DNA of 64,000 nt from Trypanosoma brucei (Eukaryota), in contig CP000071.1 in the NCBI GenBank assembly GCA_000002445.1, positions 640,001 to 704,000 of the forward strand, in the 5' to 3' direction. Positions 4,203-52,758 of the stretch are shown here, in pieces. The notes under the pieces are model-generated. The model did not search any database. It saw only the letters and a list, made by a program, of their open reading frames with translations, and was not told where the DNA came from. Both the position numbers and the translations under genes were made by a program. Positions within the stretch are counted from its first letter, which is position 1. Each line of letters opens with the position of its first letter.

Positions 4203-7200
4203 GTGGGTGGTGGCGAAGGTGCCACCCCGCTTCTCTATCAGCTTCATGAGGTGTTGCAGGAAAAACAAGCAGACCGCCGTCTTCAGCTTCTTTGCTTGTT
4301 TCTGGAACATTTCCTGGCTGAGTGCCCAAATGCCGGCGCCGCGCCATTCAAAAAATACTTTGGCACAGGAGCCACGCTTATCGAGTCGCTTGTTTGTTTG
4401 GTTACGTCGCTTATCGAGTCTGTTCTCTTCGGCGCACATGTGCGTGAGGGTGTCACCATGCTGGCGGAGAGTCCTGGTTTCGCAAAGGCCCTTTCTACAC
4501 TGACACTCCTAGGAACGGAAAGTTTCTACAGCACAACTTTGGAATGGAGAAAGCGCGTTACGGATATTATTCACATGACCTCCGATGAACAACTTCCAGC
4601 ACTACTTATGAGGGTATACGATGTACTCTTGCAAGTGTTGCTTGATGACGGAAGGAAGCAGCCGAACTACCTGGAGCTTGCTTCAACAGCTGTTGCTGTA
4701 ATGTGCTTCGTTCATCGGCTGTTCCTACACTACAGGGAAGAACGGCTGTTGTTGGATGAGTATCGCCGCTGGGTATTTCTCCGCGCAGTTGTTCGTACTT
4801 TTGAGTTCACGCTTTCTAATCACTTCGAAGGAAGTGCAGCACTATCAGATGCATCTCGGGGGGTTATTGCTTTGATGTTTTTACCAGATGCAGATTTGAG
4901 CAGACTTTCAGTGGGCGAAGCTGAGTTCAGCGCGGAGGACGCATCTTTTCAACGGGCGCTTCATTTGGCCCATTCGTTTATGCCCTCTGCGAAAGATTTA
5001 GGTGCGTTTTTGGAATGTTTGGTGTGTTGTATCGAAAGTTTGCTAAGCGTTCGTAGTGTCTTGGGCCACCCGGAAGTGGAAACTACAGACTTCGGGGTTG
5101 TGTTTTCAGTTCTTTTCCCTCTTCAAAGTGCTATGGCTCAGCGCTATGAACACGCAGAGAGGCTGTTTCGGTCTATTTGTTCAATAGCTTCCGCGATACG
5201 CGGGCCGCCTTCGGCCACAACATCGTCGGGAACTGCGAAAGGTGTGGCTAATTTCTTCTCTGCAGTCTTCACACCGTCACAGGTTAACACGATACAGCGG
5301 TTTGTAAGCTCCGTTGGTGCATCTGGATCACCGAAGCGTAGTCCTATCACATGTCGCGAGGCTGTGGAATGCGTAACGAGCTTTTTCGTTTGCGCAACCG
5401 AAGAAATGGCTATAGAGGCATGTGCTCGCCCTCTGTTTGACTTGGTTTGTCTTGATGATGTGGAGGAGGAGCTGGTCCGCTTTGTGCTCTATTCATGCAC
5501 CGAAAATCTCCTATTACTCAAACCGTGTCAACTACAACGTGTAACGCAGTTGCTGCTCACCGCCGTAAAGCGCGGCATTGCCATCTCAGAGACCGTTTCC
5601 TCGGTTGCAGCAGTGCTAAGGAAGGAATCCAAAGCGGTGGTTGAGGTGAAGATTTTTGTGCTAGAGTTTCTTAGCTTTTATTCAACGGCAGTAAGTCATG
5701 CATCTGAGGTAGAAACACTGCATAGCGTCTTCAAGTGGACGCTTGAGGAGGTGACATCGATAAGCGACTGGGTCCAACCGCAGGCAGTTTCATATCTGGC
5801 AGCGGTGACGCAATTCGTGAGATCGGCACTCGCATCCGCACCGTTGGTAGCACTACTGGCAAGGCTTGAATGGCCCCACGAGGTGCTGCTTCTGCTGTTG
5901 CGTGCTCATGGTGATGGTGTAAGGGAAGTAGCAGTCACATTTCGGAATCTCTTTTGTTCAATGGTATTCAACGAGGGGCAGTTTGTGGATGTTCTTATTA
6001 GCGAATTGAGGGCAATGGGCGGCCAGAGCCCCTGGCCTTCACAAATTTCCATCCTGTTGTGTGTATTCGTGTACCTGCTGCAGGATAAACGGGGTGCATG
6101 GGCTGCGATAAGAAGTAACGACATCTACGTGTGCCTTTACCTGCTTCACTACCTGGACCAAAGTACCTGCATTGAGGAGGATGCGCATCTTATTGGAACA
6201 TCGTTGGCATTGTTGTTGTCGCACCTGCGGTGGAGTGAAGCTGGAGGAATTGTCGCACACTATGTTGATGCTGTCAGAACCCCTTGGATGGTCCAACTTC
6301 TGGTTGATCTTGCCACAGGGTTTTACACCACCACAAAAAACTTGATTGCTGCCGATGCTATGCGTGTAGAAACTGTAAAAACGATGACGCCGGGCAGTCG
6401 ACTGTGCTGTGAAGTAGTGGGGGGGTTTTCCATACCTTTGTCCTGCCGCTTCGAGCACACCTTTCCTTTTGGTGTGCTTCTTCGTTGGATAGTGGAACCA
6501 GGAAATCAATCCGGCGATTGGCAGAAAAACTTGATGGAGCTCCTATCTGGCATGCTCCACCGCCGCTGCCTACCTCTCGTTGACGACGCGTTCACCTCTA
6601 CGGTGGTGAAACAAAAACTTTATGAGCTGCTTCCATACGTGGCCGATGTTTCGAGAAGGGATGTGCTCGCATTGCTTTCGTCTTCGAAGGAGTATCTAAC
6701 ACTTGAAGATGTCTCGAACGCTCAAGCCATCTGGGAGAGACTAGCATACGGTAGAATCGGGGAAGGTTTGCAGCATGAATTCCACGATTATATCACATGG
6801 TACGGAAACGGCGCATTGCATGGGGTGCTGCGGGGTGTGCAAAAGGGTTGTTCTCTCAACGACCGCTTCACGACGGCTGTGTGGGTGTATTGGGAATCAT
6901 GCATAGGGACGGATACGGGTTCGATGATTCAGCTTTGGGAGTTGCTCTGGCCGGGCGCTGAGGGCTCTACGAAAGTGTCATTGTCGGTTGACACGATGCA
7001 AAGAAAGGTCATTTTTGCAGTTTCCCCGGCGGACGAAGCGCAACAAGTTGTCACCCTTCCCTTCATTCCGCCAGGCCAGTGGATGCACGTAGTAGTGAGC
7101 TTTTTATGCAACCGATTATTTTCCTCCACTGTGACGGCGTTCTACGATGGAGTTCGCACCCTTCAGACCGATATAACCGTACCTGGGTCCCACACATTCC

Positions 7201-10200
7201 TTCCGTACCCTGGAGGCCCCTCATTTATGGCAAGGATTCTCTCTGAAAGCACCTATGATTTCACTTGCACCGTGGGGTTTTCACACGAAGGGAGCTCTGA
7301 GGGCTGCATGCAGCGTTTTGTGTCGTTTCAGCTGTTTAATGCAGCTTTATCACAATTGGAAGTAATGTCGCTTTTTTGTGTGGACCCGTATTCGCTCACA
7401 GGTCTGAGGGCTGCGAAGAGGTGCCCGCTGGAGTTGCCGCTGCTGAGACCAGAGGCGCTGCGGTACTTAGTTGCTAGCGCTGCCCATGGGGAGCTTCAAG
7501 AACTTACTAGCTCAAGAGCGCTTAATTTCGCTCCGTTTCCTGCAGAATTCCTGATATTATCATTACATGTGCAGAACGCGGAGTTGGTCGAGTGCTCCCA
7601 GTTACAGTCCCTCCACAATAAGAGGTGGGTGGTCCCTGACTCTGCGGGGAGAAATGGAGTGACGAACTTTTTATTACACGGCTCACACAGCGAGCCCGTG
7701 GCTACGGGTGGAAACATAACCAAGGTGCTTATCTCACATAACGTCCCCTGCGAGTGGCTGCGCTGGCTTTGTGTAATCTCCTGTGCATACGATGAGGTTA
7801 CAATGCCTAACACAAAAAACGTGCTTGATAGTGCTGACGCGAAGATGGCTGTTCTGCAGAGAATAGCAGCAACGACACTGAGAATAATTGCCACGTATTA
7901 TTGGAAGGCGGAGGAGGTAAGTGACGGCAATGTGGCAATATTCATCAATTATGTAACTCTGCAAGTGAAGCAACGGCCACAGGTTTATCTGGCTACTACG
8001 GACGGGGTGGACGCAGTTTTTGGTCTTGGTGCAGCGAAGGAATCCACAGGTGAGCACTGCGTCGTGTATAACACAGTACCGGTTGAGGACGTCTTTTTTA
8101 ACTGGAAAGTTACTTCGTTTCTCCCGGAGCAGTGTCAACAACGTATTTTGTTTCATCTTACTGCACTCCTACAAAAGAGCAACCCGTTTAGGGCGGTAAA
8201 TGCCTTACGTTTGCAACATTCCAGTTTTTTTGACGGTTTCATATGCGGACTTGTGAGGGAGTATGTATGGCCCCCGGTACTAGAATCCGCTGTTGCTGTC
8301 ATTGCGCTGTACATTGAGTGCATCGCAGGCGATGCTGTTGCGCTCCGGGAGGTTCTCAACTTATGTGCGTCTATAGTTCCCGTGGAGCGTGATGTGCTAA
8401 CCGTTGCCAAGCGCCTTGTGTCCAAGATACCACTGGTAGCATTCGAGTGCATAGTTGTTGTTGTGCTCAACCACCTGCTGAAAGTGCTCTGTGGCGCTTG
8501 TGTCAGTCTCCACAATGAGGGACTAATGTTTGCTGAGGCCCTGTCGCACGCAATGCCGCAGTGCTGGTTTCACATTTTGACGAGTGAGTGGGCACATCCA
8601 GTTTCCGTAACCATGGCGATGCACCTCTTTACTCTTTGTTACAAACGGAGTGAAACGTTTAGAAGACGCTTCGGAGACGTCATCCCTTTATTGTACGAAA
8701 ACTTGCGTCACCACGCACACCAGAGTGACCTGTTGATTGTCCTAATCAGTGGCTTCTGGGGGAGCGACTGGGACCAACAGAAACCTCCATATGCTTTGCT
8801 AAACCAATTGTATACCACTTCTGAAGGGACAGTGCCGTCCTTCTTGCAACTTGCTATGCATCTGCTTGGTAGGAGTGCTTCGTTGTTGCTGCGACCTGAC
8901 GCGGCGGTGAATTACCCTCACATCACATGCGCTTCATTCTACGCTGCGATGGGCGCAGCTGCCACCGCTGAACATTGTAGGGCACGGTCACAACTAAGGT
9001 GCTACATCTCTGTGGTTGTGTTCTGCGCACGGCTGCGTCGGGGACAGAAGATACCCGACGACGGCGCGAATAGAATTTCGTTCACAAAGAGGGAATCGGC
9101 TGATCACGGGGAGATGAGGCGGACTGTAGTTGCCATTTTGCAGTGGGTTGCGCGCAGATACCCGAGCGACCGCCGCGTCTCGAAGGCTATGTACGTTTCA
9201 CAAAAATCATACAACCCAATGGATATGGCGCTGCTTTGTCTGTTTCCCGCATTGCCTATGGACAAGGATGTGGGGAGCGTTGGGAATATGCCGTTGCCTC
9301 TTCTTGACGTGGTAGAGGGTTTAGGAACCACTGTTGGGCATCGAGATATTTTTGATGGAGGCTACTCTGGCACAGGCGGCTTTGACTTCGATGACTGTGA
9401 CGACGAGAGGGAGGAACTAGTCTGTGATGCGCGGGGCCCTAATACCTCACCGGCTACCGAGGCACGGGACTGTGATTTCGATGCTCTACTGCATCAACCA
9501 GAAAGTGAGCTGTACAATGCTTGTCGTGCGCTATTTGTTGCGCACATCAAGCGATACGCACGTAGTGCCAAATGTCAGCCCTTCGTGACGGGTAGGAAGT
9601 CGGTGCGTTCTCCGCCAAAACTCGTGCTCGCGCTGCAACGGGCGCTTGCTCTCTGCCCAAGCGGCATAGGACTCAGGGCAAGATATATGTTCTGTGTGGC
9701 GGTTTGTTGTTTTTGTCTTAAGGCTCTAACGGATATGCTTCGTGAGGAGCAACCTGGTGAGACCGGCCAGTGCGTCCTTGACAACATGGTAGCCACGGGG
9801 AAGTACCTTGCTGATCGGTTGGTAAGCGGGGCCGCTACCCCCACAATGGCGGTGACGAAGTTTTTGCAGCACTTACTCAAGTTACATCTTAACACCGAGC
9901 AAGTCAAAGATTTGTGTGAATCTCTTTCTGAGTGCTTACTTCTTTTAATGGACTCAGTAAGCTGCGGGAGAGATGCTCGGTCCGCAGCATCGGTGATTGA
10001 TTCTCTGCACGACGAGCACATTGGTGTCTTCGGCTACCGGATTCCGTCTGAAGAGCTTCTTCGGTTGACCACGCATAGGTTGTTAGATATTTCAGAGGTG
10101 TTATTAGCCTCAGACGTGGACAGGCATTCCGTTAATATGGAAAAGTTGGTTGGTTTGTGGCGCACATTTTTGGTTGCCAACAGGGAGGTCCCCTTCTTTC

Positions 10201-13200
10201 GCTTGGTTTGGAATACGGAGGAGAAAGCTGCACGCGTTTTCTACATGCTCACGGAATCCACTGATGGAGGAGTGGGGGATTTGGTTGCATGGGTAATGGC
10301 AGATCATAGTAATTTCAAGCAAAGCTTATGCAAAGACGAATGGACTCAGATGACGTTGAGAAAAACATTTCTCCAGAAGAGGGACCGCCGCTGGGCGGCG
10401 TGTGCGGTGGAGCAGAGGGACCGTGAGTGTGCAGACCTGATGAGCTCTTGCAAAGTGAAGTGCAATGCGATGAACGAAGAGTGGTCGAAACTTACTGATA
10501 CCTCAACTTTTGTGGACACAACGTTGTTGGCACGCAGAATTGAGTGCTGCGATGTACTGCACCGACATTTACAAGTTCAGCTACTCCCCAACTATGGGAT
10601 GGAAGAAAAACCGGGCACTTTGCACCTTCACCCCAGTGGCGCCGTGGGGTATCCTTGTGGCGTGCCTTTTGATTTACTCCACAATTTGACAAATGCACAC
10701 ATACGCTATCCATCGCTTAGGTGTCGTCTTGCCGCAAGTACTGCAAGTGACGATGGCTCCGTCAGTTCCCATTCGCGGGCGAGTGTGCCCGCGGCTCTTC
10801 TTCGTATTGTTGGTTCCCACTTCACCAACCCTGTCCTTTTTGTCGGTAATGTGTATTATCTTCATGGTGATGAGTGCTCAATTAGCGTAATGTCTGTGAC
10901 TCCAAGGGAGGTTGTGATCGTTGGTGATAGCCAGTTTTCGGCGAGCGGTGATTTCTCCATCGGGGTTCTTAATCCCCGGGACGCATGGGGGACTTTATCA
11001 CTGGACAATGGCTCGCCTTCCTGCGATAACCGCAACTTTCTCCCGTGGCTATCAGAAAGGGGTAACACAGAAAAACTGGAAATTGCCCGCCATTCCTGCT
11101 GCTTCCGAACGATATGCGTTGAGTCGCGTGTGCCAAACTCTCCGTCGTTCACATGGCGCTTCTCCACAGGCAGTATACTGAAAGTGCACCAGCGCTTTTT
11201 TCAGCACCGTCCCGTTGCTTTGGAGTTTCAACTGGAAAACGGTGACAGGTGTTTCATCGCGGCTCTTGATGAAAGACTTTGCTTTTCGAGGGCAAAACAG
11301 GAGGAAATCATGTCTGCAGTGTCGCGTGTAGCCCCACAAGCGGATATGGAGACGTATTCCCAAAAGGAGTCTCGGATGTCTGAACTTGGAGAACGATGGA
11401 AGCAGCGCAGAATCAGCAACCGCATGTATTTGCTCCAGCTCAACGACATTGCTGGGAGAACGGTGGCTGACATGGGTCAGTACCCTGTGATGCCGTGGGT
11501 TCTTAGCGACTATGAAAGTTCTACGATCGATTTAAGGGACCCAGGTGTTTATAGGGACTTGGCAAAGCCGATCGGTGCTCTGAATGAGGCGAAGGAGAGG
11601 CAATTACGCGATCGGTACGAGCAATGGTTTGATAAGTCTCAACCCCCATTCCATCACGGAACTCACTACAGCAGCAGTGCAGTGGTAATGTATTATTTAA
11701 TTCGCCTTCAGCCCTTCACGCAGCGCTCTGTTAGGTACCAGGGGGGCCGACTTGACATTGCTGGACGCATTTTTCATAGTGTTTCTGAGGCATGGAACAG
11801 CTGTGGTGGAGTCGGTGATGTGAAGGAGCTTGTCCCTGAATTTTTTTGTCTTCCAGAGATGTTCATGAACAAGAGTAGGATCGACCTTGGCGTGCGCCTT
11901 GACGGTGTGCAGTTGGGGGATGTCGTACTACCTGAATGGTGTGGCGGTGACGTGGAGCGGTTTGTTCATCTGCATGCAGAGGCCTTGGAGAGTGACGTCG
12001 TCAGTGGCAAGCTGCACGAGTGGGTTGACCTCGTATTTGGAAACAAACAGCGCGGAAGGGGAGCAGTGGATGCTATCAACGTCTTTCTGCACCTTTCGTA
12101 TGGTCAAGCCGTTGGAAGAGCCATCGCCGAAGCCTCCAGTGAGGAGGATTGCAAAGCGATTGTGGCAACAGCGGCGAACTTCGGGCAGACACCTCGGCAA
12201 CTTTTCAACCGTGCCCATGCTCGCAGGTTCGACAACCGATACGGGCCAACCCCCCAACAAGCCTTCATAAACGAAGCGGGGAAACTCTTCGTCAGGTGGA
12301 GGTCAGTGTGTTATCCATGGGGTAACAAGCGTTGCTGCACGCCTATAACGTCGTTGCGCATCGTGGACTCTAGTGCTATCGCGTCCACTCGGTTCAGCCT
12401 CATACTTCCAACGACGCCGATGCAGGTTTGCCACTACAGTAATGTCACTAGGGAGCTATCTTGCCATGAATACGGCAAGCCGACGCTTCTATGCGTTCTC
12501 CCTAATGTCTGGCATCAAGGATATGGGGAACTTACAACGATGTGTACTTCATCACTCGGGGGGATCATATGCATAGGGACCACCAATGGAAAGGTGGTTA
12601 TCTGCAGCCGTGTGACATCAACGGCTCCATTTACTATTATGTCGATTCTCAATGCATGCAGAAACGACGATAGCGCGCCTGTGAAACTCTTGAAGATGTG
12701 GAACAGTGGTCACCTTTCTGTTGTATGTGAAGATGGTCCTCGGGGGTCGCTTTGGCACGTTGCGCACTCTGGGGTAATGTTCTGCTTCAAATTTGATATC
12801 AGTGATGTTGTGGACGAGTCCTCTACTATCCGTGACATTACTCGGGACGAGCAAAGCAACTGTTACTTTATTGCTACTCACAATCATATTGTGCAGTTGT
12901 CAAGCACCGGCAGAGTTCTTGGTGTGGCAAGCGTTTCCAAAGCCAGCACGGCCACAACCGCAAGGAAGGGAACAACGGCACCTCCCGCGAACAACGACGC
13001 AGCGGCTGATGGCCCCAAACAGCATTTTTGCGCAGCAGAATACATTAACTTTGAAAGTTATAGTAAAACCAACATCTTGCTTGCAGGACACGAGGATGGA
13101 ACCATTTCTTTTTGGACAGTACGGCCATTGTTAGGATTCGATCAAAATACGTTTGCTACAGAAATCAAAATGTTCCATTCGTTCACAGTGGATGGTGACA

Positions 13201-13307
13201 CAAGAATTACTACAATAACGCATGACGGTGCAGGTTTTAGCGCAGGTACGGCAAGTGGAGAAGTACATACATACAGCGTACCTGACCCATTTGCAGACGA
13301 GGAATGA
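4203..13307 (+). CDS. BEACH-domain / WD40 protein (neurobeachin/LYST-like), 3034 aa
   Basis: BEACH signature block ...PVMPWVLSDYESSTIDLRDPGVYRDLAKPIGALNEAKERQLRDRYEQW...PFHHGTHYSSSAVVMYYLIRLQPFT...; C-terminal WD-like repeats (HEDGTISFW, TTITHDGAGF); giant ARM/HEAT-like N-terminus. Confidence 0.9.
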   Translation: MGGGEGATPLLYQLHEVLQEKQADRRLQLLCLFLEHFLAECPNAGAAPFKKYFGTGATLIESLVCLVTSLIESVLFGAHVREGVTMLAESPGFAKALSTLTLLGTESFYSTTLEWRKRVTDIIHMTSDEQLPALLMRVYDVLLQVLLDDGRKQPNYLELASTAVAVMCFVHRLFLHYREERLLLDEYRRWVFLRAVVRTFEFTLSNHFEGSAALSDASRGVIALMFLPDADLSRLSVGEAEFSAEDASFQRALHLAHSFMPSAKDLGAFLECLVCCIESLLSVRSVLGHPEVETTDFGVVFSVLFPLQSAMAQRYEHAERLFRSICSIASAIRGPPSATTSSGTAKGVANFFSAVFTPSQVNTIQRFVSSVGASGSPKRSPITCREAVECVTSFFVCATEEMAIEACARPLFDLVCLDDVEEELVRFVLYSCTENLLLLKPCQLQRVTQLLLTAVKRGIAISETVSSVAAVLRKESKAVVEVKIFVLEFLSFYSTAVSHASEVETLHSVFKWTLEEVTSISDWVQPQAVSYLAAVTQFVRSALASAPLVALLARLEWPHEVLLLLLRAHGDGVREVAVTFRNLFCSMVFNEGQFVDVLISELRAMGGQSPWPSQISILLCVFVYLLQDKRGAWAAIRSNDIYVCLYLLHYLDQSTCIEEDAHLIGTSLALLLSHLRWSEAGGIVAHYVDAVRTPWMVQLLVDLATGFYTTTKNLIAADAMRVETVKTMTPGSRLCCEVVGGFSIPLSCRFEHTFPFGVLLRWIVEPGNQSGDWQKNLMELLSGMLHRRCLPLVDDAFTSTVVKQKLYELLPYVADVSRRDVLALLSSSKEYLTLEDVSNAQAIWERLAYGRIGEGLQHEFHDYITWYGNGALHGVLRGVQKGCSLNDRFTTAVWVYWESCIGTDTGSMIQLWELLWPGAEGSTKVSLSVDTMQRKVIFAVSPADEAQQVVTLPFIPPGQWMHVVVSFLCNRLFSSTVTAFYDGVRTLQTDITVPGSHTFLPYPGGPSFMARILSESTYDFTCTVGFSHEGSSEGCMQRFVSFQLFNAALSQLEVMSLFCVDPYSLTGLRAAKRCPLELPLLRPEALRYLVASAAHGELQELTSSRALNFAPFPAEFLILSLHVQNAELVECSQLQSLHNKRWVVPDSAGRNGVTNFLLHGSHSEPVATGGNITKVLISHNVPCEWLRWLCVISCAYDEVTMPNTKNVLDSADAKMAVLQRIAATTLRIIATYYWKAEEVSDGNVAIFINYVTLQVKQRPQVYLATTDGVDAVFGLGAAKESTGEHCVVYNTVPVEDVFFNWKVTSFLPEQCQQRILFHLTALLQKSNPFRAVNALRLQHSSFFDGFICGLVREYVWPPVLESAVAVIALYIECIAGDAVALREVLNLCASIVPVERDVLTVAKRLVSKIPLVAFECIVVVVLNHLLKVLCGACVSLHNEGLMFAEALSHAMPQCWFHILTSEWAHPVSVTMAMHLFTLCYKRSETFRRRFGDVIPLLYENLRHHAHQSDLLIVLISGFWGSDWDQQKPPYALLNQLYTTSEGTVPSFLQLAMHLLGRSASLLLRPDAAVNYPHITCASFYAAMGAAATAEHCRARSQLRCYISVVVFCARLRRGQKIPDDGANRISFTKRESADHGEMRRTVVAILQWVARRYPSDRRVSKAMYVSQKSYNPMDMALLCLFPALPMDKDVGSVGNMPLPLLDVVEGLGTTVGHRDIFDGGYSGTGGFDFDDCDDEREELVCDARGPNTSPATEARDCDFDALLHQPESELYNACRALFVAHIKRYARSAKCQPFVTGRKSVRSPPKLVLALQRALALCPSGIGLRARYMFCVAVCCFCLKALTDMLREEQPGETGQCVLDNMVATGKYLADRLVSGAATPTMAVTKFLQHLLKLHLNTEQVKDLCESLSECLLLLMDSVSCGRDARSAASVIDSLHDEHIGVFGYRIPSEELLRLTTHRLLDISEVLLASDVDRHSVNMEKLVGLWRTFLVANREVPFFRLVWNTEEKAARVFYMLTESTDGGVGDLVAWVMADHSNFKQSLCKDEWTQMTLRKTFLQKRDRRWAACAVEQRDRECADLMSSCKVKCNAMNEEWSKLTDTSTFVDTTLLARRIECCDVLHRHLQVQLLPNYGMEEKPGTLHLHPSGAVGYPCGVPFDLLHNLTNAHIRYPSLRCRLAASTASDDGSVSSHSRASVPAALLRIVGSHFTNPVLFVGNVYYLHGDECSISVMSVTPREVVIVGDSQFSASGDFSIGVLNPRDAWGTLSLDNGSPSCDNRNFLPWLSERGNTEKLEIARHSCCFRTICVESRVPNSPSFTWRFSTGSILKVHQRFFQHRPVALEFQLENGDRCFIAALDERLCFSRAKQEEIMSAVSRVAPQADMETYSQKESRMSELGERWKQRRISNRMYLLQLNDIAGRTVADMGQYPVMPWVLSDYESSTIDLRDPGVYRDLAKPIGALNEAKERQLRDRYEQWFDKSQPPFHHGTHYSSSAVVMYYLIRLQPFTQRSVRYQGGRLDIAGRIFHSVSEAWNSCGGVGDVKELVPEFFCLPEMFMNKSRIDLGVRLDGVQLGDVVLPEWCGGDVERFVHLHAEALESDVVSGKLHEWVDLVFGNKQRGRGAVDAINVFLHLSYGQAVGRAIAEASSEEDCKAIVATAANFGQTPRQLFNRAHARRFDNRYGPTPQQAFINEAGKLFVRWRSVCYPWGNKRCCTPITSLRIVDSSAIASTRFSLILPTTPMQVCHYSNVTRELSCHEYGKPTLLCVLPNVWHQGYGELTTMCTSSLGGIICIGTTNGKVVICSRVTSTAPFTIMSILNACRNDDSAPVKLLKMWNSGHLSVVCEDGPRGSLWHVAHSGVMFCFKFDISDVVDESSTIRDITRDEQSNCYFIATHNHIVQLSSTGRVLGVASVSKASTATTARKGTTAPPANNDAAADGPKQHFCAAEYINFESYSKTNILLAGHEDGTISFWTVRPLLGFDQNTFATEIKMFHSFTVDGDTRITTITHDGAGFSAGTASGEVHTYSVPDPFADEE

Positions 13308-13499
13308 TACAAAGAAAATAAATTGCATGTGATAAGTAAAAAAAAAAACAGCACACAACCTACCCCAGAAGAAGTACACTGTAACCGCAACCATTTACCA
13401 CTACAACTAAAAAACTTATTCACCATTAAGAAAATGGTAGTGATACTTCTTACAAAACAACTCGTGAAGGCAGACGGGTACGTTAAATACTTGTGAGGG

Positions 13500-13915
13500 T
13501 GCCAGTGATTATACGTAATGTCTTTGCTACAGGTGATTGTACGATATGACCATACCGACTAAACCAACCGAGATCAATGAGGCATGAAATGTTCCCGCCC
13601 TGTTTTCAATTAAGTGACGGTGTGATTACAGACAGGACGTAAGTGAGTCAATGTCAATATCTCCGTATTACACCATGAGGACTATTGTCCCCCGTGTCTG
13701 ACCGCCGCTTCCACCTCCTCTCTCCCTTCTTTTCTCCTTTCTTGTTTCTTCTCTTTCACTTACACATGATGTCATTTCGTATTCTGCAATACTGACAATA
13801 ACTTGAGCGAGACAAGACATATTTGACTACTGGCAACTGAAACCCGCCACCCTCTCGGATTCTTTGGTCCTCCACTAGTTACTCAACGGTATTTCACTTT
13901 AGCTCAGCGTATATA
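13500..13915 (+). repeat. X element copy 1 (about 416 bp non-coding repeat containing a 64-nt polypyrimidine tract)
   Basis: tgccagtgattatacgtaatgtctttgctacagg ... ctttagctcagcgtata recurs at 17194-17607 and 51294-51710. Confidence 0.85.
13702..13765 (+). promoter_or_regulatory. long polypyrimidine tract (candidate trans-splicing/polyadenylation coupling signal) inside X element
   Basis: ccgccgcttccacctcctctctcccttcttttctcctttcttgtttcttctctttcacttacac; essentially pure pyrimidine for about 64 nt, followed by AG dinucleotides; same tract in all three X copies. Confidence 0.4.
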
Positions 13916-14364
13916 TGAATATAACGTCCACGGAGCTATAAGATGTTCCCATTACCTACCTTTATTGTTATCACGAGGCTCAAAAGAACACACTGAGCGT
14001 GTACCAATGCCCAGTGAGTGGGACAGCCATCGAAGATAAGTGTTTGTTTTACGGCAATGAGGTTCGAATGCGCCTGACGGTTTTTGTCCGACGTGGTGTG
14101 GGAAACGCCTCAAAGAAGTTACTGCACCTACACCTTCATTTTCACGGGTATATATTATCCCTGGTCACTAATTGATGTTTGGTATGTTTAATCTGTCACT
14201 GAACACTACTCACTTGTTTCCCCAGTGTAAGTGTGTTATCTTTCCCGTCTGTGCATTCACATGAATTTTAACTTTTATTACTCATAAATTATGTTTTGCC
14301 TCAATTATATAGACACCGCTTTATACGCAATTTTAAGCAAGGAAGTCCAACAAGGTGAATTATA

Positions 14365-14964
14365 ATGGGTTGTGGAGGTTCAGCTCCTGCTAACAAAGAC
14401 AAGCATGTGGGTGCAGATCCACCAAAACCTTCAGAGCATTCGGAACATTCAAAACCTTCAGATCCTTCAGATCCTGCTGATGCTACTCGATTTAAGCAGT
14501 TTTGCACACTTCCACTACATGACAAGGATAAGCCAGTTGCTGCTGCAGCAATTAGGGTTACCGACCCCAAGTGTATTTCGGATATTTTACCTCCGGAATT
14601 CCTTGAGGGAAAGAAGGTGCATAATGAATTTTGTGCAATTACTCTCTCCTTCGATGATGGAAAGCCGGAGGATGAAGGCCTTTTTGAGAAGTTGAAGGAA
14701 TTGGAAGGTACTTCCATCGAATTGAAACCAACCCATATTGTGATGAATGAAAAAGTCGCCGCCATTGGGGTGTGTAATAATGATGAATTCCCCTGCCAGG
14801 ACGCACACCCGCATATCCTCGTTGCAACTGCTCCAGATGCCACACAGGAAGATATTGATGATGTAACCAAGAAAGGAAAGATTAAGATATTTTGCGCGAG
14901 AAAACTTCCCGATCTGCCACCTGATATCACCATCCCAGGCGAGTTTCGTTTCATGCACTGGTGA
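14365..14964 (+). CDS. acylated 2H-phosphoesterase-like protein, A-type (degenerate H-x-T-x motifs), copy 1 of 4
   Basis: 199 aa. N-terminal MGCGGS has Gly2 and Cys3 for acylation and Ser6, and is followed by a P/S/D/E-rich linker. Clear homolog of gene B over its full length, but motif 1 is FCAITLSFDDG (catalytic His lost) and motif 2 is HPHILVATAP (Thr to Leu). Confidence 0.75.
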   Translation: MGCGGSAPANKDKHVGADPPKPSEHSEHSKPSDPSDPADATRFKQFCTLPLHDKDKPVAAAAIRVTDPKCISDILPPEFLEGKKVHNEFCAITLSFDDGKPEDEGLFEKLKELEGTSIELKPTHIVMNEKVAAIGVCNNDEFPCQDAHPHILVATAPDATQEDIDDVTKKGKIKIFCARKLPDLPPDITIPGEFRFMHW

Positions 14965-16023
14965 GTATTTCCCTGTTCCTTGTGTTTCAATGGTTTCACA
15001 AGAGTACATATGAATTGTTGTAAGTGTGCTGGCAGTTGCTGTTACTCTGATCGATCAAAGAGTTAGTGGTACTGCGCTTCATTACTTTATTACTTTTGCT
15101 ATTTTGTTTTACGAATTTACTTGCCTTTGTCCCTTCTTACTTTCCTTTTGATAACCTTTAGATATTTGCGTGTGGAGGTTTTGGTTTACTGTTATCCACA
15201 TCTGGGGCTATATTCCCTTCATTTGAATTTTATTATTGCGGTATTGACTTTTTCTTTCAAAGAAGATGATGAACATTGGAATAACGAATAGGGACGATAC
15301 GAGGGGAATGAAGAAAAGGCAGAAAAATGATACGGAGAGGAGGGAAAGACAAAATACAAACAACATGTGGGAGAGATATTTTTGCTTTGCTTTGGTTTGA
15401 TATCTGTTTTGTTTGTTTTTTTTCGTTGTGTTCGATGTTTTTTTGATCTTATTTTCCGAGACTTTATTATACAGGATTTGTTTAACTTATGTACTTTATT
15501 ACCTATTGCTTGTGTGCCATTGTTGTGTTACTATGAAACATTTATTGGTGTGGCAGAATAAAATGTGTTTTGGCATTGCTTTCCACAAGTAACCGAAGGG
15601 CACCAAATATTTGCTACGGGAGAGCACTGAAATGAAAGGAAACAACTGAACACACTGAGCGTGTACCAATGCCCAGTGAGTGGGACAGCCATCGAAGATA
15701 AGTGTTTGTTTTACGGCAATGAGGTTCGAATGCGCCTGACGGTTTTTGTCCGACGTGGTGTGGGAAACGCCTCAAAGAAGTTACTGCACCTACACCTTCA
15801 TTTTCACGGGTATATATTATCCCTGGTCACCAATTGATGTTTGGTATGTTTAATCTGTCACTGAACACTACTCACTTGTTTCCCCAGTGTAAGTGTGTTA
15901 TCTTTCCCGTCTGTGCATTCACATGAATTTTAACTTTTATTACTCATAAATTATGTTTTGCCTCAATTATATAGACACCGCTTTATACGCAATTTTAAGC
16001 AAGAAAGTCCAACAAGGTGACTG

Positions 16024-16584
16024 ATGATGGGTTGTGGAGGTTCTAAATTGTCTGCTAAGAGCAAACAAGCGGATGCGGATCCACCAAAGCCTTCAGATCC
16101 TGCTGATGCTCATCGATTTGAGCGGATTTGTACACTTCCACTACATGATGGTGAGAAACCGATGATCTTCGGTGCAATTATGATAAATGATCTTGCCGCG
16201 GTCAGATCCCTTGTGCCTGCAGATTACCTTGAGGGCAAAAATATGCAGGATGAATTTCACATAACTACAATTTATCTTGGGGGGAAACCGCCACAAGACG
16301 ATGAACTTTTCAAAAAGTTACAAACGTTGGAAGGTACTTCCATCCAGGTGGCACCTGTCCGTATCGCGTCCGACGCAAAGGCAACAGCAATTGAAATTCG
16401 TAACAATAACGAATTCCCATGCCAAAATGTACACCCGCACATTACCATTGCTACTGCTCCCGGTGTACCAGCGAAGTATAGCAATGAGCTGCTAAGCAAA
16501 GTAAGCACTGAAACAAGCGACATCAAGGTAATGGAGTTGTCACCTGATGTATCCATTTCAGGTGTGTTTCAGTTTGTGCGGTGA
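16024..16584 (+). CDS. acylated LigT/CNPase-like 2H phosphoesterase, B-type (both H-x-T-x motifs intact); true start probably the second ATG at 16027 (MGCGGSK)
   Basis: 186 aa. MMGCGGSK N-terminus. Motif 1 EFHITTIYLGG matches the canonical 2H pattern h-H-h-T-h-x-[FY]-L-G. Motif 2 HPHITIATAP, about 62 residues later, matches p-H-I-T-h. From LQTLEGTS to the stop it is nucleotide-identical, apart from 3 SNPs, to the 3' end of the 48146..50689 gene. Confidence 0.75.
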   Translation: MMGCGGSKLSAKSKQADADPPKPSDPADAHRFERICTLPLHDGEKPMIFGAIMINDLAAVRSLVPADYLEGKNMQDEFHITTIYLGGKPPQDDELFKKLQTLEGTSIQVAPVRIASDAKATAIEIRNNNEFPCQNVHPHITIATAPGVPAKYSNELLSKVSTETSDIKVMELSPDVSISGVFQFVR

Positions 16585-17193
16585 TGAACACCTCTTTCTT
16601 CATGTTCTTTTCGGTATAACCTACAGAAGTAACGATGAGTACATTAACGGTTGTTGTTTGTTGTGCTCATCGATGAGGCATTAATACCACCCTTTGTTTT
16701 TCCTTTTTTTCTTCTTTGAATCATTAATAAATTTTATCTTGCTTTGTACAAACAATTTTACGTGATTTATTTTGTCCTTAGACGTAGACAATAATTTTGA
16801 TGATAGTGTTTATGTGGACGAATATATTTCTCTCCTTTGCAATTCACGATTGGATCCAAGTATATTGATGGGAACTTGTGACTTAGGGGAAACGAGTGGT
16901 GTGCTGACATGCTCTCGCAGCACTGATATTCCCCCATAATGCTATGCACTCTGAACTGCATGTGTTGTGTCTGTGTGTATGTGTATACATGGTGTGTCGT
17001 ATGTCCTTTTTGTCTCTGTACAACAATAACCTTATACTACGCATCTTGTTACATTCCAACTTTTTCTCTCTAAAAATATACCTAATTTTACAACAAATTA
17101 GGAGGAGGAGGAGTGTGTCTTAACATTGTTTATGTGCCGTATCGTGATGACAGATATTCAGCTGACGCCACACTCATCGGATGTAAGAAAATG

Positions 17194-17607
17194 TGCCAGT
17201 GATTATACGTAATGTCTTTGCTACAGGTGATTGTACGATATGACCATACCGACTAAACCAACCGAGATCAATGAGGCATGAAATGTTCCCGCCCCGTTTT
17301 CAATTAAGTGACGGTGTGATTACAGACAGGACGTAAGTGAGTCAATGTCAATATCTCCGTATTACACCATGAGGACTATTGTCCCCCGTGTCTGACCGCC
17401 GCTTCCACCTCCTCTCTCCCTTCTTTTCTCCTTTCTTGTTTCTTCTCTTTCACTTACACATGATGTCATTTCGTATTCTGCAATACTGACAATAACTTGA
17501 GCGAGACAAGACATATTTGACTACTGGCAACTGAAACCCGCCACCCTCTCGGATTCTTTGGTCCTCCACTAGTTACTCAACGGTATTTCACTTTAGCTCA
17601 GCGTATA
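17194..17607 (+). repeat. X element copy 2
   Basis: Same sequence as 13500-13915 and 51294-51710. Confidence 0.85.
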
Positions 17608-17708: not shown

Positions 17709-18335
17709 TTGGTTTTATTATCTTCTTTGTTAGGTCGTAGTGAATTGGAGATGAAGGTGGTGGTCAATGAAATGTCCCAAGTTGTTGAGATTATCACCAA
17801 TGAGGGCGTTATTTCTGTTGAGCTTTATGATACCTTTGCACCCCGTGCTGCCGAGTCGTTTCGCCGATTTGCCGAAAGTGGTCAACTTGATGGTGCTGTT
17901 TTCGACAGAATGGTTCCCACATTCTTGTTAGAGTGCAGACTTTCAGAATTTAGTGTGTATGGTGAACTGGTAGGGAGAGAGGAGAATAATCATTTGCATC
18001 ACACTGGTGCAGGGATTCTCACTTGTTTTGGAACTGTCCTTGAGAGTGGCGCTTTTTTTATTACTCTTGGGCCGCAACCTGAGTTGGATAACGTTTGCAC
18101 CATATTCGGTCGTGTACGGAGTGGTATGCGTGTAGTGGAGAAGATTAGTCGGTCTCGTGTAGCTGAAAAAACGTTTCGTCTTTATACTCCGGTAGTGGTT
18201 GAGCGGTGTTTAACGCGAGTCTTGCCAAAGGAGCGGAGACCTGAATGTGTGGGAGGGGAACAGTTGGACGTCCTGCCGCAGTCTGTGAGTCGACACTGTG
18301 GAACACAGAGTAGTATCTTGAATGATTTGGAGTGA
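17709..18335 (+). CDS. divergent cyclophilin-like (PPIase-fold) protein; true start possibly internal Met at 17751
   Basis: VELYDTFAPRAAESFRRFAESGQLDGAVFDRMVPTFLL matches the cyclophilin N-terminal pattern hELh.D.hP.TA.NF..L......Y.G..FHRhIP.F. The QGGD motif is replaced by ECRLS, so it is probably not an active PPIase. Confidence 0.5.
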   Translation: MVLLSSLLGRSELEMKVVVNEMSQVVEIITNEGVISVELYDTFAPRAAESFRRFAESGQLDGAVFDRMVPTFLLECRLSEFSVYGELVGREENNHLHHTGAGILTCFGTVLESGAFFITLGPQPELDNVCTIFGRVRSGMRVVEKISRSRVAEKTFRLYTPVVVERCLTRVLPKERRPECVGGEQLDVLPQSVSRHCGTQSSILNDLE

Positions 18336-18651: not shown

Positions 18652-19149
18652 ATGCTAAGTGACGATACCTGTCAACCAGAGGCGGTGCTCTTTGGCATGC
18701 TGGGTGCGGCTGCCTCTTTGGCGCTCTCCAACATTGGGGCCGCTTACGGTACAGCGAAATCTGGCGTTGCCGTTGCTCATCTCGGCATTGTGGAACCATC
18801 ACGTGTAATGCGTGGCATTGTGCCTGTTGTCATGGCAGGTATTCTTGGTATATACGGCCTTATTGTCTCAGTTATTATCAGCAACAACCTCAAGCTGTCG
18901 GGCTACGCAATGTTCTCCGGCTTCATGCACCTTGGCGCTGGTCTTGCCGCCGGCTTTGCTTCTCTGGCGAGTGGTTATGCTATTGGTATTGTGGGTGACA
19001 TTTGTTGTTTTGCATACGCCAAGACAGAAAAGATATTTGTCCCAATGATTTTGATGCTCATTTTTGCTGAGGCGCTTGGGCTCTATGGGCTCATCATGGC
19101 CCTCTTAATGAACAACCGTGCCACATCCTATACGGGTGGTTGCTCTTGA
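18652..19149 (+). CDS. V-type H+-ATPase 16 kDa proteolipid subunit c
   Basis: 165 aa with four TM helices, [10 protein letters not shown] and [11 protein letters not shown] motifs, and a conserved Glu in TM4 ([11 protein letters not shown]); classic Vma3/ATP6V0C. Confidence 0.9.
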
Positions 19150-48145: not shown

Positions 48146-50689
48146 ATGGACGCGCAAGTTGGAGTTGTTCAGCAACCGGTGACCACTAGTTCAACGATTT
48201 GGGTTGGGGAATGTCAATGTCCAAAATGGAAAAAATCTACCCACCGTGCGGTTGAGCAAAACCTGACGACTTCACTAGAATGCGGTGGAGAAAGAGATGC
48301 ACTCCTTGATGTTGCTTGCGGAAGTGGCATTGACATAGATTCTTTCCTTAGAGAGAAGTGGATTCGTGTAGCATTTACTTCTAGTTTCGGAAGTAACAGT
48401 AGGGTCCGCGTGCGGGCGAGAAGGGTGAGGATAGGTAGCCATGAGTTTGTCGTGGTGGAACGGAACGTTTTTGGGTGTGATGACTCGGTATATCGAAAGG
48501 ATAACAAACTTTGGGAGGGTTTGCCCCGTGGGCAGGCCTGCGTATTTGTCGAATCGGGCGACAGGGCTGGGTTTATACCCATAGGTAGACTTCAAGGCCT
48601 GCGGAAGTTCAATTCCTTCGACGGACCATATGGTATTAGGGGAAGGCAACCCGTTAGTGCTGTTGCGATGGAGGCCATCGACGGGGACTGTGGTCATATC
48701 TCTGCGTTCGTGCACACTGGAGAGCGGTATTGGCTTGTTGGGAACAAAGATACTCACCTATTAGTAAGCTTCAGTGTACCAGAGAAAGATATATTCTCCA
48801 ACACCGCCGAAGGTGGTGCCATAACGAATGAGGGGGACAAGCCACTTCAGGGGGCTAACTATTCACCTCCGTCGCTAGCGGTGCGGATAGCAAGGCTCTG
48901 GGGTCAAACGCTTCGAGCACTTCCCGATGAAAAATCATTCGGTTTGCATGAGTTTTTGTCTTCAAACAGGTACACGGCTTGCTTCGACGCTGTGCTACAG
49001 GACTGTGGACACCTTGTCGACTACGGTGAAGATGAACTTCTACAGTTTTACGCTCTGACCCAAAGTGGTGAATCGCTAGCAGAGGGCTTGTGCGTGGATC
49101 CAGTTAGCGCTATAGTAAACCTGCAGTCCTTTGGTCTTCGTGTAGTCCCCTTCCATAGTGAGCAATGCTCATCAGTACCTGAAATTCTGGATCTTGGAAC
49201 GGACGAGTATTCGCAGTACGGGGGCCAGGTTGCGCGTCGTCTGAACTGCAGAGGAGCGGTTATGTACGGCTTGGACGCCCAGGGCATTGTGGTTCGGTTG
49301 TGGAAGTTACCTTCGCACGCATACGTGGTTGAGCGTGCGGCACAGGAGGCCATTGTGACGCATCGCCTGAGCGGTACCGTCTTGCGCGACAAGTTGCGGA
49401 GGAAGTTAGACCGCTTGCCGAAAGAAATACGACGATGTGTCACTGAATGGAGTTCAGCCCGTCTTGAGCCATTGTTGAACCTTGCAGCGTGGTTGCACAT
49501 TATGGGGAAAGTAACACCGGAGGTTGGCCTCGATGGATTGCAGGAGGTCCGTCGCAGTTGGATAACACTTCAACAGCAACTTGTGAAGCACACAAAGGAC
49601 ATGCGTGAGCACTTACAACTGTACGAGCCCCCAGTGGCCGAGGCAGCTATCAATAACCCGGACGTCATCATGTGTGTGGGGCCACAAGGTTGTGGCAAGT
49701 CCACGTTTTGTCGCGCTTTCTGTGTCTTACTCCAGAAGGTAGGTCAGAAGCCTCGTTGGATCAACCAGGACGAAGTGGGTGGTCGAAATGAGTTTATCGA
49801 GGCCATCCGACGTGCCAAGGAATCCGACTGTACACATATTCTTATAGATAAAATGAATCTTGACGATGCGGCACGAAATGCTGACTACGCCTCTTTCAAC
49901 CTAAAAACGATAACCGTCGCTTGGGTACATCCTTGTGATGTAGACGTTATGGTAAGTACGTGCCTAGAAAGAGTATGCCATCGCGGCAATGCACATCGCA
50001 CATTCAGAGGAACCGTCTCCCCGGGGAAAAAGAGGAAAATGATGACAATTATCCGTGGGTGTGTACAGCGATGCGAACCACCAACAACAGGGATTGTTAT
50101 TGAGGCCAATGTCTTGGACCCCCCGGCCATAACCATAGAATCTGTGTGGAAAGGTCTCTGCCGACACACAATGTCTGAACTTCCAGATATTAAAGATCTT
50201 TCCGTTGCCGACGCGTTGGAAATTGCTCGTAGGTACGAATTACTCTTGTCACACTCATCGCGTCCCTTCAATTGCGGCATCATAAAGGTTGTGAATTCAG
50301 AACTTCTTGTCGCCCTTGTGCCTGCAGATTACCTTGAGGGCAAAAAAATGCGCAAGGAACTCGACATCAGCACAATCTATCTTGGTGACAGATCCCATTT
50401 CGATCTTACGCTTCTGTCAGAGTTACAAACGTTGGAAGGTACTTCCATCCAGGTGGCACCTGTCCGTATCGCGTCCGACGCAAAGGCAACAGCAATTGAA
50501 ATTCGTAACAATAACGAATTCCCATGCCAAAATGCACACCCACACATTACCATTGCTACTGCTCCCGGTGTACCAGCGAAGTATAGCAATGAGCTGCTAA
50601 GCAAAGTAAGCACTGAAACAAGCGACATCAAGGTAATGGAGGTGTCACCTGATGTATCCATTTCAGGTGTGTTTCAGTTTGTGCGGTGA
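48146..50689 (+). CDS. multidomain protein: about 480-aa N-terminal domain, then polynucleotide-kinase-like P-loop, then C-terminal LigT/CNPase-like 2H domain. The architecture resembles CNPase and the kinase-CPD module of Trl1-type tRNA ligase
   Basis: Walker A VIMCVGPQGCGKSTF at about aa 510, with downstream D-x-x-N-L-D (HILIDKMNLDD). The C-terminal 150 aa are homologous to genes A and B: motif 2 HPHITIATAP is intact, motif 1 is ELDISTIYLGD (His to Asp). The last about 260 nt and the 3' flank are identical to gene B. Confidence 0.7.
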   Translation: MDAQVGVVQQPVTTSSTIWVGECQCPKWKKSTHRAVEQNLTTSLECGGERDALLDVACGSGIDIDSFLREKWIRVAFTSSFGSNSRVRVRARRVRIGSHEFVVVERNVFGCDDSVYRKDNKLWEGLPRGQACVFVESGDRAGFIPIGRLQGLRKFNSFDGPYGIRGRQPVSAVAMEAIDGDCGHISAFVHTGERYWLVGNKDTHLLVSFSVPEKDIFSNTAEGGAITNEGDKPLQGANYSPPSLAVRIARLWGQTLRALPDEKSFGLHEFLSSNRYTACFDAVLQDCGHLVDYGEDELLQFYALTQSGESLAEGLCVDPVSAIVNLQSFGLRVVPFHSEQCSSVPEILDLGTDEYSQYGGQVARRLNCRGAVMYGLDAQGIVVRLWKLPSHAYVVERAAQEAIVTHRLSGTVLRDKLRRKLDRLPKEIRRCVTEWSSARLEPLLNLAAWLHIMGKVTPEVGLDGLQEVRRSWITLQQQLVKHTKDMREHLQLYEPPVAEAAINNPDVIMCVGPQGCGKSTFCRAFCVLLQKVGQKPRWINQDEVGGRNEFIEAIRRAKESDCTHILIDKMNLDDAARNADYASFNLKTITVAWVHPCDVDVMVSTCLERVCHRGNAHRTFRGTVSPGKKRKMMTIIRGCVQRCEPPTTGIVIEANVLDPPAITIESVWKGLCRHTMSELPDIKDLSVADALEIARRYELLLSHSSRPFNCGIIKVVNSELLVALVPADYLEGKKMRKELDISTIYLGDRSHFDLTLLSELQTLEGTSIQVAPVRIASDAKATAIEIRNNNEFPCQNAHPHITIATAPGVPAKYSNELLSKVSTETSDIKVMEVSPDVSISGVFQFVR

Positions 50690-51293
50690 TGAACACCTCT
50701 TTCTTCATGTTCTTTTCGGTATAACCTACAGAAGTAACGATGAGTACATTAACGGTTGTTGTTTGTTGTGCTCATCGATGAGGCATTAATACCACCCTTT
50801 GTTTTTCCTTTTTTTCTTCTTTGAATCATTAATAAATTTTATCTTGCTTTGTACAAACAATTTTACGTGATTTATTTTGTCCTTAGACGTAGACAATAAT
50901 TTTGATGATAGTGTTTATGTGGACGAATATATTTCTTTGCAATTCACGATTGGATCCAAGTATATTGATGGGAACTTGTGACTTAGGGGAAACGAGTGGT
51001 GTGCTGACATGCTCTCGCAGCACTGATATTCCCCCATAATGCTATGCACTCTGAACTGCATGTGTTGTGTCTGTGTGTATGTGTATACATGGTGTGTCGT
51101 ATGTCCTTTTTGTCTCTATACAACAATAACCTTATACTACGCATCTTGTTACATTCCAACTTTTTCTCTCTAAAAATATACCTAATTTTACAACAAATTA
51201 GGAGGAGGAGGAGTGTGTCTTAACATTGTTTATGTGCCGTATCGTGATGACAGATATTCAGCTGACGCCACACTCATCGGATGTAAGAAGATG

Positions 51294-51710
51294 TGCCAGT
51301 GATTATACGTAATGTCTTTGCTACAGGTGATTGTACGATATGACCATACCGACTAAACCAACCGAGATCAATGAGGCATGAAATGTTCCCGCCCCGTTTT
51401 CAATTAAGTGACGGTGTGATTACAGACAGGATGTAAGTGAGTCAATGTCAATATCTCCGTATTACACCATGAGGACTATTGTCCCCCGTGTCTGACCGCC
51501 GCTTCCACCTCCTCTCTCCCTTCTTTTCTCCTTTCTTGTTTCTTCTCTTTCACTTACACATGATGTCATTTCGTATTCTGCAATACTGACAATAACTTGA
51601 GCGAGACAAGACATATTTGACTACTGGCAACTGAAACCCGCCACCCTCTCGGATTCTTTGGTCCTCCACTAGTTACTCAACGGTATTTCACTTTAGCTCA
51701 GCGTATATAT
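51294..51710 (+). repeat. X element copy 3
   Basis: Same sequence as 13500-13915. Confidence 0.85.
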
Positions 51711-52158
51711 GAATATAACGTCCACGGAGCTATAAGATGTTCCCATTACCTACCTTTATTGTTATCACGAGGCTCAAAAGAACACACTGAGCGTGTACCA
51801 ATGCCCAGTGAGTGGGACAGCCATCGAAGATAAGTGTTTGTTTTACGGCAATGAGGTTCGAATGCGCCTGACGGTTTTTGTCCGACGTGGTGTGGGAAAC
51901 GCCTCAAAGAAGTTACTGCACCTACACCTTCATTTTCACGGGTATATATTATCCCTGGTCACTAATTGATGTTTGGTATGTTTAATCTGTCACTGAACAC
52001 TACTCACTTGTTTCCCCAGTGTAAGTGTGTCATCTTTCCCGTCTGTGCATTCACATGAATTTTAACTTTTATTACTCATAAATTATGTTTTGCCTCAATT
52101 ATATAGACACCGCTTTATACGCAATTTTAAGCAAGGAAGTCCAACAAGGTGAATTATA

Positions 52159-52758
52159 ATGGGTTGTGGAGGTTCAGCTCCTGCTAACAAAGACAGGCAT
52201 GTGGGTGCAGATCCACCAAAACCTTCAGAGCATTCGGAACATTCAAAACCTTCAGATCCTTCAGATCCTGCTGATGCTACTCGTATTCACAAAATCTGTA
52301 CACTTCCACTACATGACAAGGATAAGCCAGTTGCTGCTGCAGCAATTAGGGTTACCGACCCCAAGTGTATTTCGGATATTTTACCTCCGGAATTCCTTGA
52401 GGGAAAGAAGGTGCATAATGAATTTTGTGCAATTACTCTCTCCTTCGATGATGGAAAGCCGGAGGATGAAGGCCTTTTTGAGAAGTTGAAGGAATTGGAA
52501 GGTACTTCCATCGAATTGAAACCAACCCATATTGTGATGAATGAAAAAGTCGCCGCCATTGGGGTGTGTAATAATGATGAATTCCCCTGCCAGGACGCAC
52601 ACCCGCATATCCTCGTTGCAACTGCTCCAGATGCCACACAGGAGGATATTGATGATGTAACCAAGAAAGGAAAGATTGAGATATTTTGCGCGAGAAAACT
52701 TCCCGATCTGCCACCTGATATCACCATCCCAGGTGAGTTTCGTTTCATGCACTGGTGA
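52159..52758 (+). CDS. acylated 2H-phosphoesterase-like protein, A-type, copy 2
   Basis: 199 aa; differs from copy 1 at a few residues (ATRIHKICTLP vs ATRFKQFCTLP; KGKIEIF vs KGKIKIF). Confidence 0.75.
   Translation: MGCGGSAPANKDRHVGADPPKPSEHSEHSKPSDPSDPADATRIHKICTLPLHDKDKPVAAAAIRVTDPKCISDILPPEFLEGKKVHNEFCAITLSFDDGKPEDEGLFEKLKELEGTSIELKPTHIVMNEKVAAIGVCNNDEFPCQDAHPHILVATAPDATQEDIDDVTKKGKIEIFCARKLPDLPPDITIPGEFRFMHW

Follow-up and report, generated by a model that had tools for sequence, protein, structure and literature searches.

Tb927.8.2080 of Trypanosoma brucei encodes a small CNPase/Trl1-CPD-type 2H domain with both HxT motifs intact, joined by recombination to a POMP39 N-terminus

Introduction

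Enzymes that open 2′,3′-cyclic phosphates can be built into larger proteins or tethered to membranes, as in the tripartite ligase-kinase-CPD proteins of the Trl1 type and in the prenylated vertebrate CNPase. A short gene on chromosome 8 of Trypanosoma brucei brucei TREU927 raises the question of whether such an enzyme can also exist as a single small domain carrying a lipid anchor at its other end, and, if so, how it was assembled. The gene lies in a stretch of 64,000 nucleotides, here called the window, which was analysed as a whole. An original prediction, made from the sequence of the window, had described a 186-aa product starting with MMGCGGSK, and this product is indeed present as an open reading frame (Table 1) that ends in a TGA stop codon (16582-16584). 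Its sequence agrees at every residue (100% identity) with XP_847041/Q581X4 of T. brucei TREU927, and the locus tag Tb927.8.2080 was assigned by matching the gene order in a published supplement to the ORFs of the window. The further claims that the protein stands alone and is uncharacterised also hold, as Pfam finds a CPD domain only within its 186 aa, and a literature search gave no functional study of Tb927.8.2080, with searches for MGCGGS and DUF7920 likewise returning no match. The CPD domain itself is already labelled in databases through automatic annotation.

We consider it probable that Tb927.8.2080 encodes a small, catalytically complete cyclic phosphodiesterase of the CNPase/Trl1-CPD-type branch of the 2H superfamily, born by recombination within a local gene family. 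If it is both active and acylated, an early-branching eukaryote would possess a CNPase-like enzyme that has no kinase domain and is tethered to a membrane, with N-terminal acylation in place of the C-terminal prenylation of CNPase. The locus is also a compact natural experiment within 64 kb, made up of a parent domain with a decayed first motif (in Tb927.8.2250), four pseudo-enzyme copies (POMP39) and one recombinant with a full active site.

Table 1. Positions of the gene, its paralogues, its motifs and the segments from which it is composed
Feature	Position in window	Strand	Remarks
Tb927.8.2080 ORF	16024..16584	+	186 aa from first ATG, 185 aa from second ATG (16027); stop codon included
Second ATG and codons G-C-G-G-S-K, predicted signal for N-myristoylation (Gly2) and S-palmitoylation (Cys3)	16027..16047	+	shared with POMP39
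First 2H motif, H79-I-T81	16258..16266	+	invariant in family alignment; aligns to FHVT (C. albicans Trl1 CPD) and FHIT (LigT)
Second 2H motif, H139-I-T141, followed by conserved A-K-Y-S-N-E-L-L	16438..16446	+	from sequence and family alignments
POMP39-1 (Tb927.8.2070), 199 aa, MGCGGS start, degenerate CPD paralogue	14365..14964	+	42% identity to Tb927.8.2080, E 5e-55
Three tandem POMP39 copies	52159-52758, 53822-54421, 55485-56084	+	1663-bp repeat unit; names POMP39-2 and POMP39-4 from published tables
Tb927.8.2250, 847 aa, DUF7920 + tRNA-ligase-type kinase + CPD	48146..50689	+	Pfam; 3′ half in common with Tb927.8.2080
POMP39-derived segment, a partial repeat unit: intergenic region, 5′ UTR, codons 1-25	15648..16097	+	95% identity to 13986-14435 and 51780-52229 (self-BLAST)
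Segment in common with Tb927.8.2250 3′ end: CPD from ~codon 62 and ~1 kb of 3′ flank	16208..17607	+	against 50313-51707, 96.9% identity (self-BLAST)
415-bp direct repeat	13499..13913, partner 17193-17607	+	99.76% identity; brackets the POMP39-1/Tb927.8.2080 pair

A CPD domain with a complete active site

The two catalytic motifs proposed for the protein, EFHITTIYLGG (H79, T81) and HPHITIATAP (H139, T141), are both intact, although their spacing was slightly overestimated, as H79 and H139 are 60 residues apart rather than the approximately 62 first given. With hydrophobic residues ahead of each, F-H79-I-T81-T and P-H139-I-T141-I conform to the motif pattern of the 2H superfamily. Within that superfamily, the assignment is to the tRNA-ligase CPDs. 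Pfam PF08302 (tRNA_lig_CPD) matches residues 68-181 with an E-value of 2.2e-11 and a score of 44.2 bits, where the gathering threshold is 23, and is the sole family above its curated cutoff, while the LigT profiles PF02834 and PF13563 reach 13.1 and 12.4 bits, under their cutoffs of 23.3 and 27, and the CNPase family is not among the matches of the Pfam scan.

Word-indexed homologue searches gave few relatives, and the family was instead supplied by an exhaustive profile search across 1.8 billion representatives, which recovered 125 relatives. Ten long relatives from this search were scanned with Pfam, where all ten match via a C-terminal CPD domain and all ten have a DUF7920...CPD architecture. 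In a 12-sequence alignment of the CPD, the invariant columns are the H, T, H and T of both motifs, together with D74, G137 and the Y-S-N of the YSNELL stretch. In the family profile, both motifs of Tb927.8.2080 fall on the HxT motifs of archaeal LigT as well as on those of the KIN-CPD of C. albicans Trl1. When the PDB was searched with the single sequence, no match was found, and the family profile gave marginal matches there (E 0.008-0.7, with Trl1 chains at E 0.17).

The fold was modelled with AlphaFold. An earlier model built from 3 sequences (pLDDT 66) was superseded by a domain model of residues 44-186 from a 15-sequence alignment, with a pLDDT of 94.4 and a pTM of 0.88, in which each HxT lies on a β-strand. 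The predicted structure is a bilobed α+β fold with the two HxT strands towards one cleft, the arrangement expected of a 2H enzyme. A fold search had been proposed as the check on the assignment, and Foldseek matches the model to CNPase with E-values down to 3e-5 and a probability of 1.00. Together with the Pfam match, this puts the observation well outside what chance would give. The original prediction had invoked a pattern common to LigT, CNPase and the tRNA-ligase CPD; its CNPase/Trl1-CPD part is borne out by PF08302, by Foldseek and by the motif alignment, and the LigT profiles fall short of their cutoffs. We regard it as solid that Tb927.8.2080 contains a 2H phosphoesterase domain of the CNPase/Trl1-CPD type in which both HxT motifs are intact.

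How the protein compares with the known systems depends on whether the domain or the architecture is considered. The catalytic domain of vertebrate CNPase (PDB 2xmi, 1woj) has only about 10% sequence identity to Tb927.8.2080, and the full-length CNPase begins with a P-loop kinase-like domain and is anchored by a prenyl group at its C-terminus, whereas Tb927.8.2080 is without such a kinase-like domain and its predicted anchor is an acyl group at the N-terminus. The CPD of fungal/plant-type Trl1 (PF08302; C. albicans KIN-CPD, 6tzo and 6u00) aligns at both HxT motifs, but the tripartite ligase-kinase-CPD organisation that defines Trl1 is not found, as Tb927.8.2080 is without ligase and kinase domains. 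LigT and the 2′-5′ RNA ligase (PDB 1vgj, 1iuh) reach half the structural score of CNPase. The nearest relatives are the CPDs of DUF7920-kinase-CPD proteins, not those of canonical Trl1. If Tb927.8.2080 works as other members of its family do, the two HxT histidines, lying on neighbouring strands contributed by the two lobes, would serve as general acid and general base. In such a mechanism, a 2′,3′-cyclic phosphate, either at an RNA 3′ end or in a 2′,3′-cNMP, would be opened to a 2′-phosphate.

Start codons and predicted acylation

The start of the gene in TREU927 contains two adjacent ATGs, ctgATGATGGGT. From the first, the protein reads M-M-G, while from the second it reads M-G-C-G-G-S-K, which fits the acylation rules at Gly2 and Ser6. 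By substrate rules, G2-C3-G4-G5-S6-K7 is a good context for both N-myristoyltransferase and palmitoylation. A protein that starts Met-Met-Gly would retain its first Met and could not serve N-myristoyltransferase as a substrate. The second AUG lies in the more favourable surroundings of the two (A at -3, G at +4), making leaky scanning plausible.

The four POMP39 paralogues read ataATGGGT at the position equivalent to the double ATG, and the orthologue in T. b. equiperdum reads tacATGGGT, so that both have a single ATG, with the acylation signal kept in the T. b. equiperdum gene; the upstream ATG of TREU927 is thus derived. The annotated T. congolense orthologue starts with MCLKNAG and is without Gly2. 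On the sequence of its N-terminus, acylation of Tb927.8.2080 is plausible, and in TREU927 it would need use of the second AUG. A protein started there would be expected to carry a myristate on Gly2 and a palmitate on Cys3, anchoring the enzyme to a membrane on its cytoplasmic side, the placement also expected of its POMP39 siblings. Membrane association of this shared N-terminus gains indirect support from the POMP39 name and from the ‘ring’ class given to Tb927.8.2070 by TrypTag.

Expression

Transcription of Tb927.8.2080 is shown, with the transcript being regulated in published RNA-seq. The product appears in one published proteome with 31% coverage and at an abundance approximately 20-fold below that of POMP39-1, but the protein detection is only tentative, because the peptides may be common to Tb927.8.2250. 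The difficulty lies in how little of the gene is its own: only about 220 nt (16098-16317) are unique, since Tb927.8.2250 has almost the same C-terminal 89 residues and POMP39 almost the same 5′ UTR. As a result, published RNA-seq and proteomic values for Tb927.8.2080, Tb927.8.2250 and POMP39 need careful reading, as they may mix signals.

A mosaic gene and its conversion partner

A tblastn search places six related genes in the window, namely four 199-aa copies, Tb927.8.2080 and the C-terminus of an 847-aa ORF, and among these six only Tb927.8.2080 has a complete active site. Its parts follow different relatives. The N-terminus (MGCGGS..DPPKPS) and the 5′ UTR are common to POMP39 and Tb927.8.2080, with the 5′ region 95% identical, and per-codon counts show that codons 1-60 track POMP39. 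Codons ~62-76 and ~98-186 instead track Tb927.8.2250, at 28-30/30 nt per 10-codon window. Between these two stretches, codons ~77-97, which contain the first HxT motif, form a divergent island that matches both paralogues poorly. Past the island, identity to the 3′ end of Tb927.8.2250, a gene 34 kb downstream, is 97-100% across codons ~98-186, which encode the C-terminal ~89 residues, and across approximately 1 kb of the 3′ flank. Tb927.8.2080 and Tb927.8.2250 show concerted evolution; orthologues of Tb927.8.2250 with its DUF7920-kinase-CPD make-up are found in kinetoplastids and other eukaryotes.

The flanking sequence repeats this arrangement at a larger scale. The 415-bp repeat that brackets POMP39-1 and Tb927.8.2080 is also found 3′ of Tb927.8.2250, at 51293-51707, and self-BLAST pairs the interval 13499-16097 with the repeat region of POMP39 (51293-53892) at an identity of 98%. 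The placement of these copies suggests that the pair was relocated from the array beside Tb927.8.2250. Strain comparison adds a second line of evidence, as TREU927 reads LQTLEG in both Tb927.8.2080 and Tb927.8.2250 where T. b. equiperdum reads LQMLEG in both, and such paired, strain-specific variants imply ongoing gene conversion. These comparisons show that Tb927.8.2080 is a recombinant, its 5′ end being that of a POMP39 gene and its 3′ end the CPD part of Tb927.8.2250, and that gene conversion has homogenised it. A POMP39 gene gave the promoter-distal 5′ region, the 5′ UTR and the first ~25-60 codons, which bring the MGCGGS acylation signal and a linker rich in Pro and Ser, while Tb927.8.2250 gave the CPD domain from ~codon 62 and its ~1 kb of 3′ flank. 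Gene conversion holds the 3′ halves of Tb927.8.2080 and Tb927.8.2250 near-identical. We infer that the mosaic and its repeats are the outcome expected if a POMP39 5′ end and the Tb927.8.2250 CPD underwent unequal exchange and the product was then relocated.

A gene formed in this manner could be a neutral by-product, a recent chimera that unequal recombination made from the POMP39 array and Tb927.8.2250 and that serves no function under selection, its active site being a relic propped up by conversion. The sharp mosaic junctions and the flanking 415-bp direct repeat are what such an origin would leave behind, and the low abundance relative to POMP39-1 is in keeping with it, as is the start-codon change in TREU927, which may disable acylation. 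The same can be said of the linker. The T. b. equiperdum orthologue (L001 5990-6594, CM010679.1) has 197 aa, one ATG and an extra EHSEYSKPSDPS linker repeat absent from TREU927, so that with 186 aa in one strain and 197 aa in the other, the N-terminal linker is indel-polymorphic between strains. The narrow distribution also fits, with the orthogroup confined to T. brucei and T. congolense: in a published OrthoFinder table, group OG0000712 places Tb927.8.2070,.2080,.2260,.2270 and.2280 together with a single T. congolense gene, which adjoins the Tb927.8.2250 orthologue, and has no T. vivax or T. cruzi member.

The first HxT motif speaks against a purely passive origin. Tb927.8.2250 has D-I-S-T at this position, so conversion from Tb927.8.2250 cannot account for the intact motif 1 of Tb927.8.2080, nor can it maintain it. 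When the motif-1 segment is compared with T. congolense, Tb927.8.2080 is the best conserved of the three versions, with 19/32 identities against 12/32 for Tb927.8.2250 and ~9/32 for POMP39, all counted by eye. Moreover, two strains that were assembled independently both keep an intact ORF with two intact motifs, T. b. equiperdum having the same synteny at the locus, and the gene is both transcribed and regulated. We judge a neutral by-product to be unlikely. As read from the sequence, the intact motif 1 argues weakly for selection on catalysis.

The long paralogue Tb927.8.2250

In Tb927.8.2250, Pfam finds DUF7920 (PF25536, E 3e-112), then a tRNA-ligase-type kinase, and then the CPD; about 700 of its N-terminal residues are missing from Tb927.8.2080. 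For the DUF7920 region, no relative in the PDB was detectable by sequence. An AIDGDCG stretch within DUF7920 bears, by eye only, a loose likeness to motif I of nucleotidyltransferases (KxDG), although the Lys is missing from it. At motif 1 of the CPD, Tb927.8.2250 of TREU927 reads E-L-D-I-S-T where Tb927.8.2080 reads E-F-H-I-T-T, D-I-S thus standing in place of H-I-T, and D-I-S-T is also found in T. b. equiperdum. The orthologues in T. congolense and other trypanosomes retain HxT.

These observations bring in a second alternative, in which Tb927.8.2080 supplies the 2′,3′-cyclic phosphodiesterase step in trans for RNA-end healing by the DUF7920-kinase-CPD protein. The D-I-S-T reading in two T. 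brucei strains, set beside the HxT kept in other trypanosomes, and the presence of only one complete CPD of the family in the window would both fit such an arrangement. It would not be without parallel, since yeast Trl1 can function when its ligase module and its kinase-CPD module are on different polypeptides. Against it, TrypTag places Tb927.8.2250 in the endocytic/cytoplasm class, there is no obvious need for a lipid anchor in such a pathway, and Tb927.8.2250 is not the TbTrl1 of Lopes (2016), which was described with both HxT motifs. We consider such a partnership speculative and improbable.

The possibility that Tb927.8.2250 is the tRNA-splicing ligase TbTrl1 was considered and rejected. 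TbTrl1 was described as a protein of 870 aa with the ligase motifs KLAG/TKH/EGYVV/LKAK, a pair of HVTV motifs and, at position 400, GxGKT (Lopes, 2016); the TbTrl1 motifs are absent from the 847-aa ORF, in which DUF7920 replaces the ligase domain. With it fell the proposal that a CPD lost from tRNA splicing is made good by Tb927.8.2080, as Tb927.8.2250 is not TbTrl1. The published HxT motifs of TbTrl1, at 739-742 and 802-805 (PMC4931112), nearly coincide with the D-I-S-T at 740 and the H-I-T-I at 800 of Tb927.8.2250, while the published positions of the ligase and kinase motifs (PMC4931112) do not fit the Tb927.8.2250 ORF. Proteins from other trypanosomes that look like stand-alone CPDs (P0013, P0014, P0016 and P0018) were considered as orthologues of the acylated form and rejected as well, as they carry the linker of the long protein; the T. 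cruzi members among such apparently stand-alone CPDs are flagged as pseudogenic.

A broader scenario can be drawn for the T. brucei lineage, in which CPD activity moved from Tb927.8.2250, with its His to Asp change, to a lipid-anchored Tb927.8.2080. The enzyme would then heal 2′,3′-cyclic-phosphate ends, or clear 2′,3′-cNMP, on a membrane surface, for example that of the mitochondrial outer membrane or of the flagellar pocket, with the POMP39 proteins as abundant pseudo-enzymes at the same site. We offer this as speculation and think it quite improbable in this full form.

The POMP39 proteins

POMP39-1 to -4 correspond to Tb927.8.2070,.2260,.2270 and.2280. In all four copies, the positions of the 2H motifs read C-A-I and H-I-L and the YSNELL stretch is absent, so that 3/4 of the catalytic residues are replaced, and Pfam tRNA_lig_CPD, at E 0.061, no longer recognises the domain. 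Judged by sequence, POMP39-1 to -4 are degenerate CPD (2H) domains, and they appear never to have been described before as pseudo-phosphodiesterases. Tb927.8.2080 is in the same orthogroup as POMP39 and has the same N-terminus, but differs in possessing the HxT motifs and in being the rarer protein by the one proteome cited above. The family relation provides a handle on POMP39 ancestry, together with a testable idea about the DUF7920-kinase-CPD proteins.

A role for Tb927.8.2080 as a membrane-associated scaffold or binding protein in which catalysis is irrelevant, as might be drawn from its POMP39-like N-terminus and 5′ UTR, its overall identity to POMP39 and the persistence of abundant POMP39 copies without catalytic residues, is very unlikely, since Tb927.8.2080 retains all four catalytic residues and the YSNELL that are replaced in POMP39.

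The POMP39 product name refers to the mitochondrial outer-membrane proteome (published tables), while the TrypTag source table lists Tb927.8.2070 in the flagellar-pocket ‘ring’ class, and the two localisation labels of POMP39-1 thus differ. The POMP39 array itself spans 51781-56763, with three copies of its repeat unit at 99.3-99.5% identity. Long antisense ORFs lie over each copy of the array, which are shadows of the repeat and not independent evidence of genes.

Surrounding sequence

The neighbours of Tb927.8.2080 include a 3034-aa BEACH-domain ORF (4203-13307), a cyclophilin (17709-18335) and V-ATPase subunit c (18652-19149). All ORFs of at least 250 aa in the window are on the + strand, with an antisense shadow at 28785-29855 as the sole exception, and this near-uniform orientation is compatible with a single polycistronic transcription unit. 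Further downstream, in an interval (41367-41964) where Tandem Repeats Finder reports no array, a 208-bp internal repeat is present as two copies that are 93.75% identical (41367-41574 and 41757-41964), both lying within a 1499-aa ORF (39740-44239).
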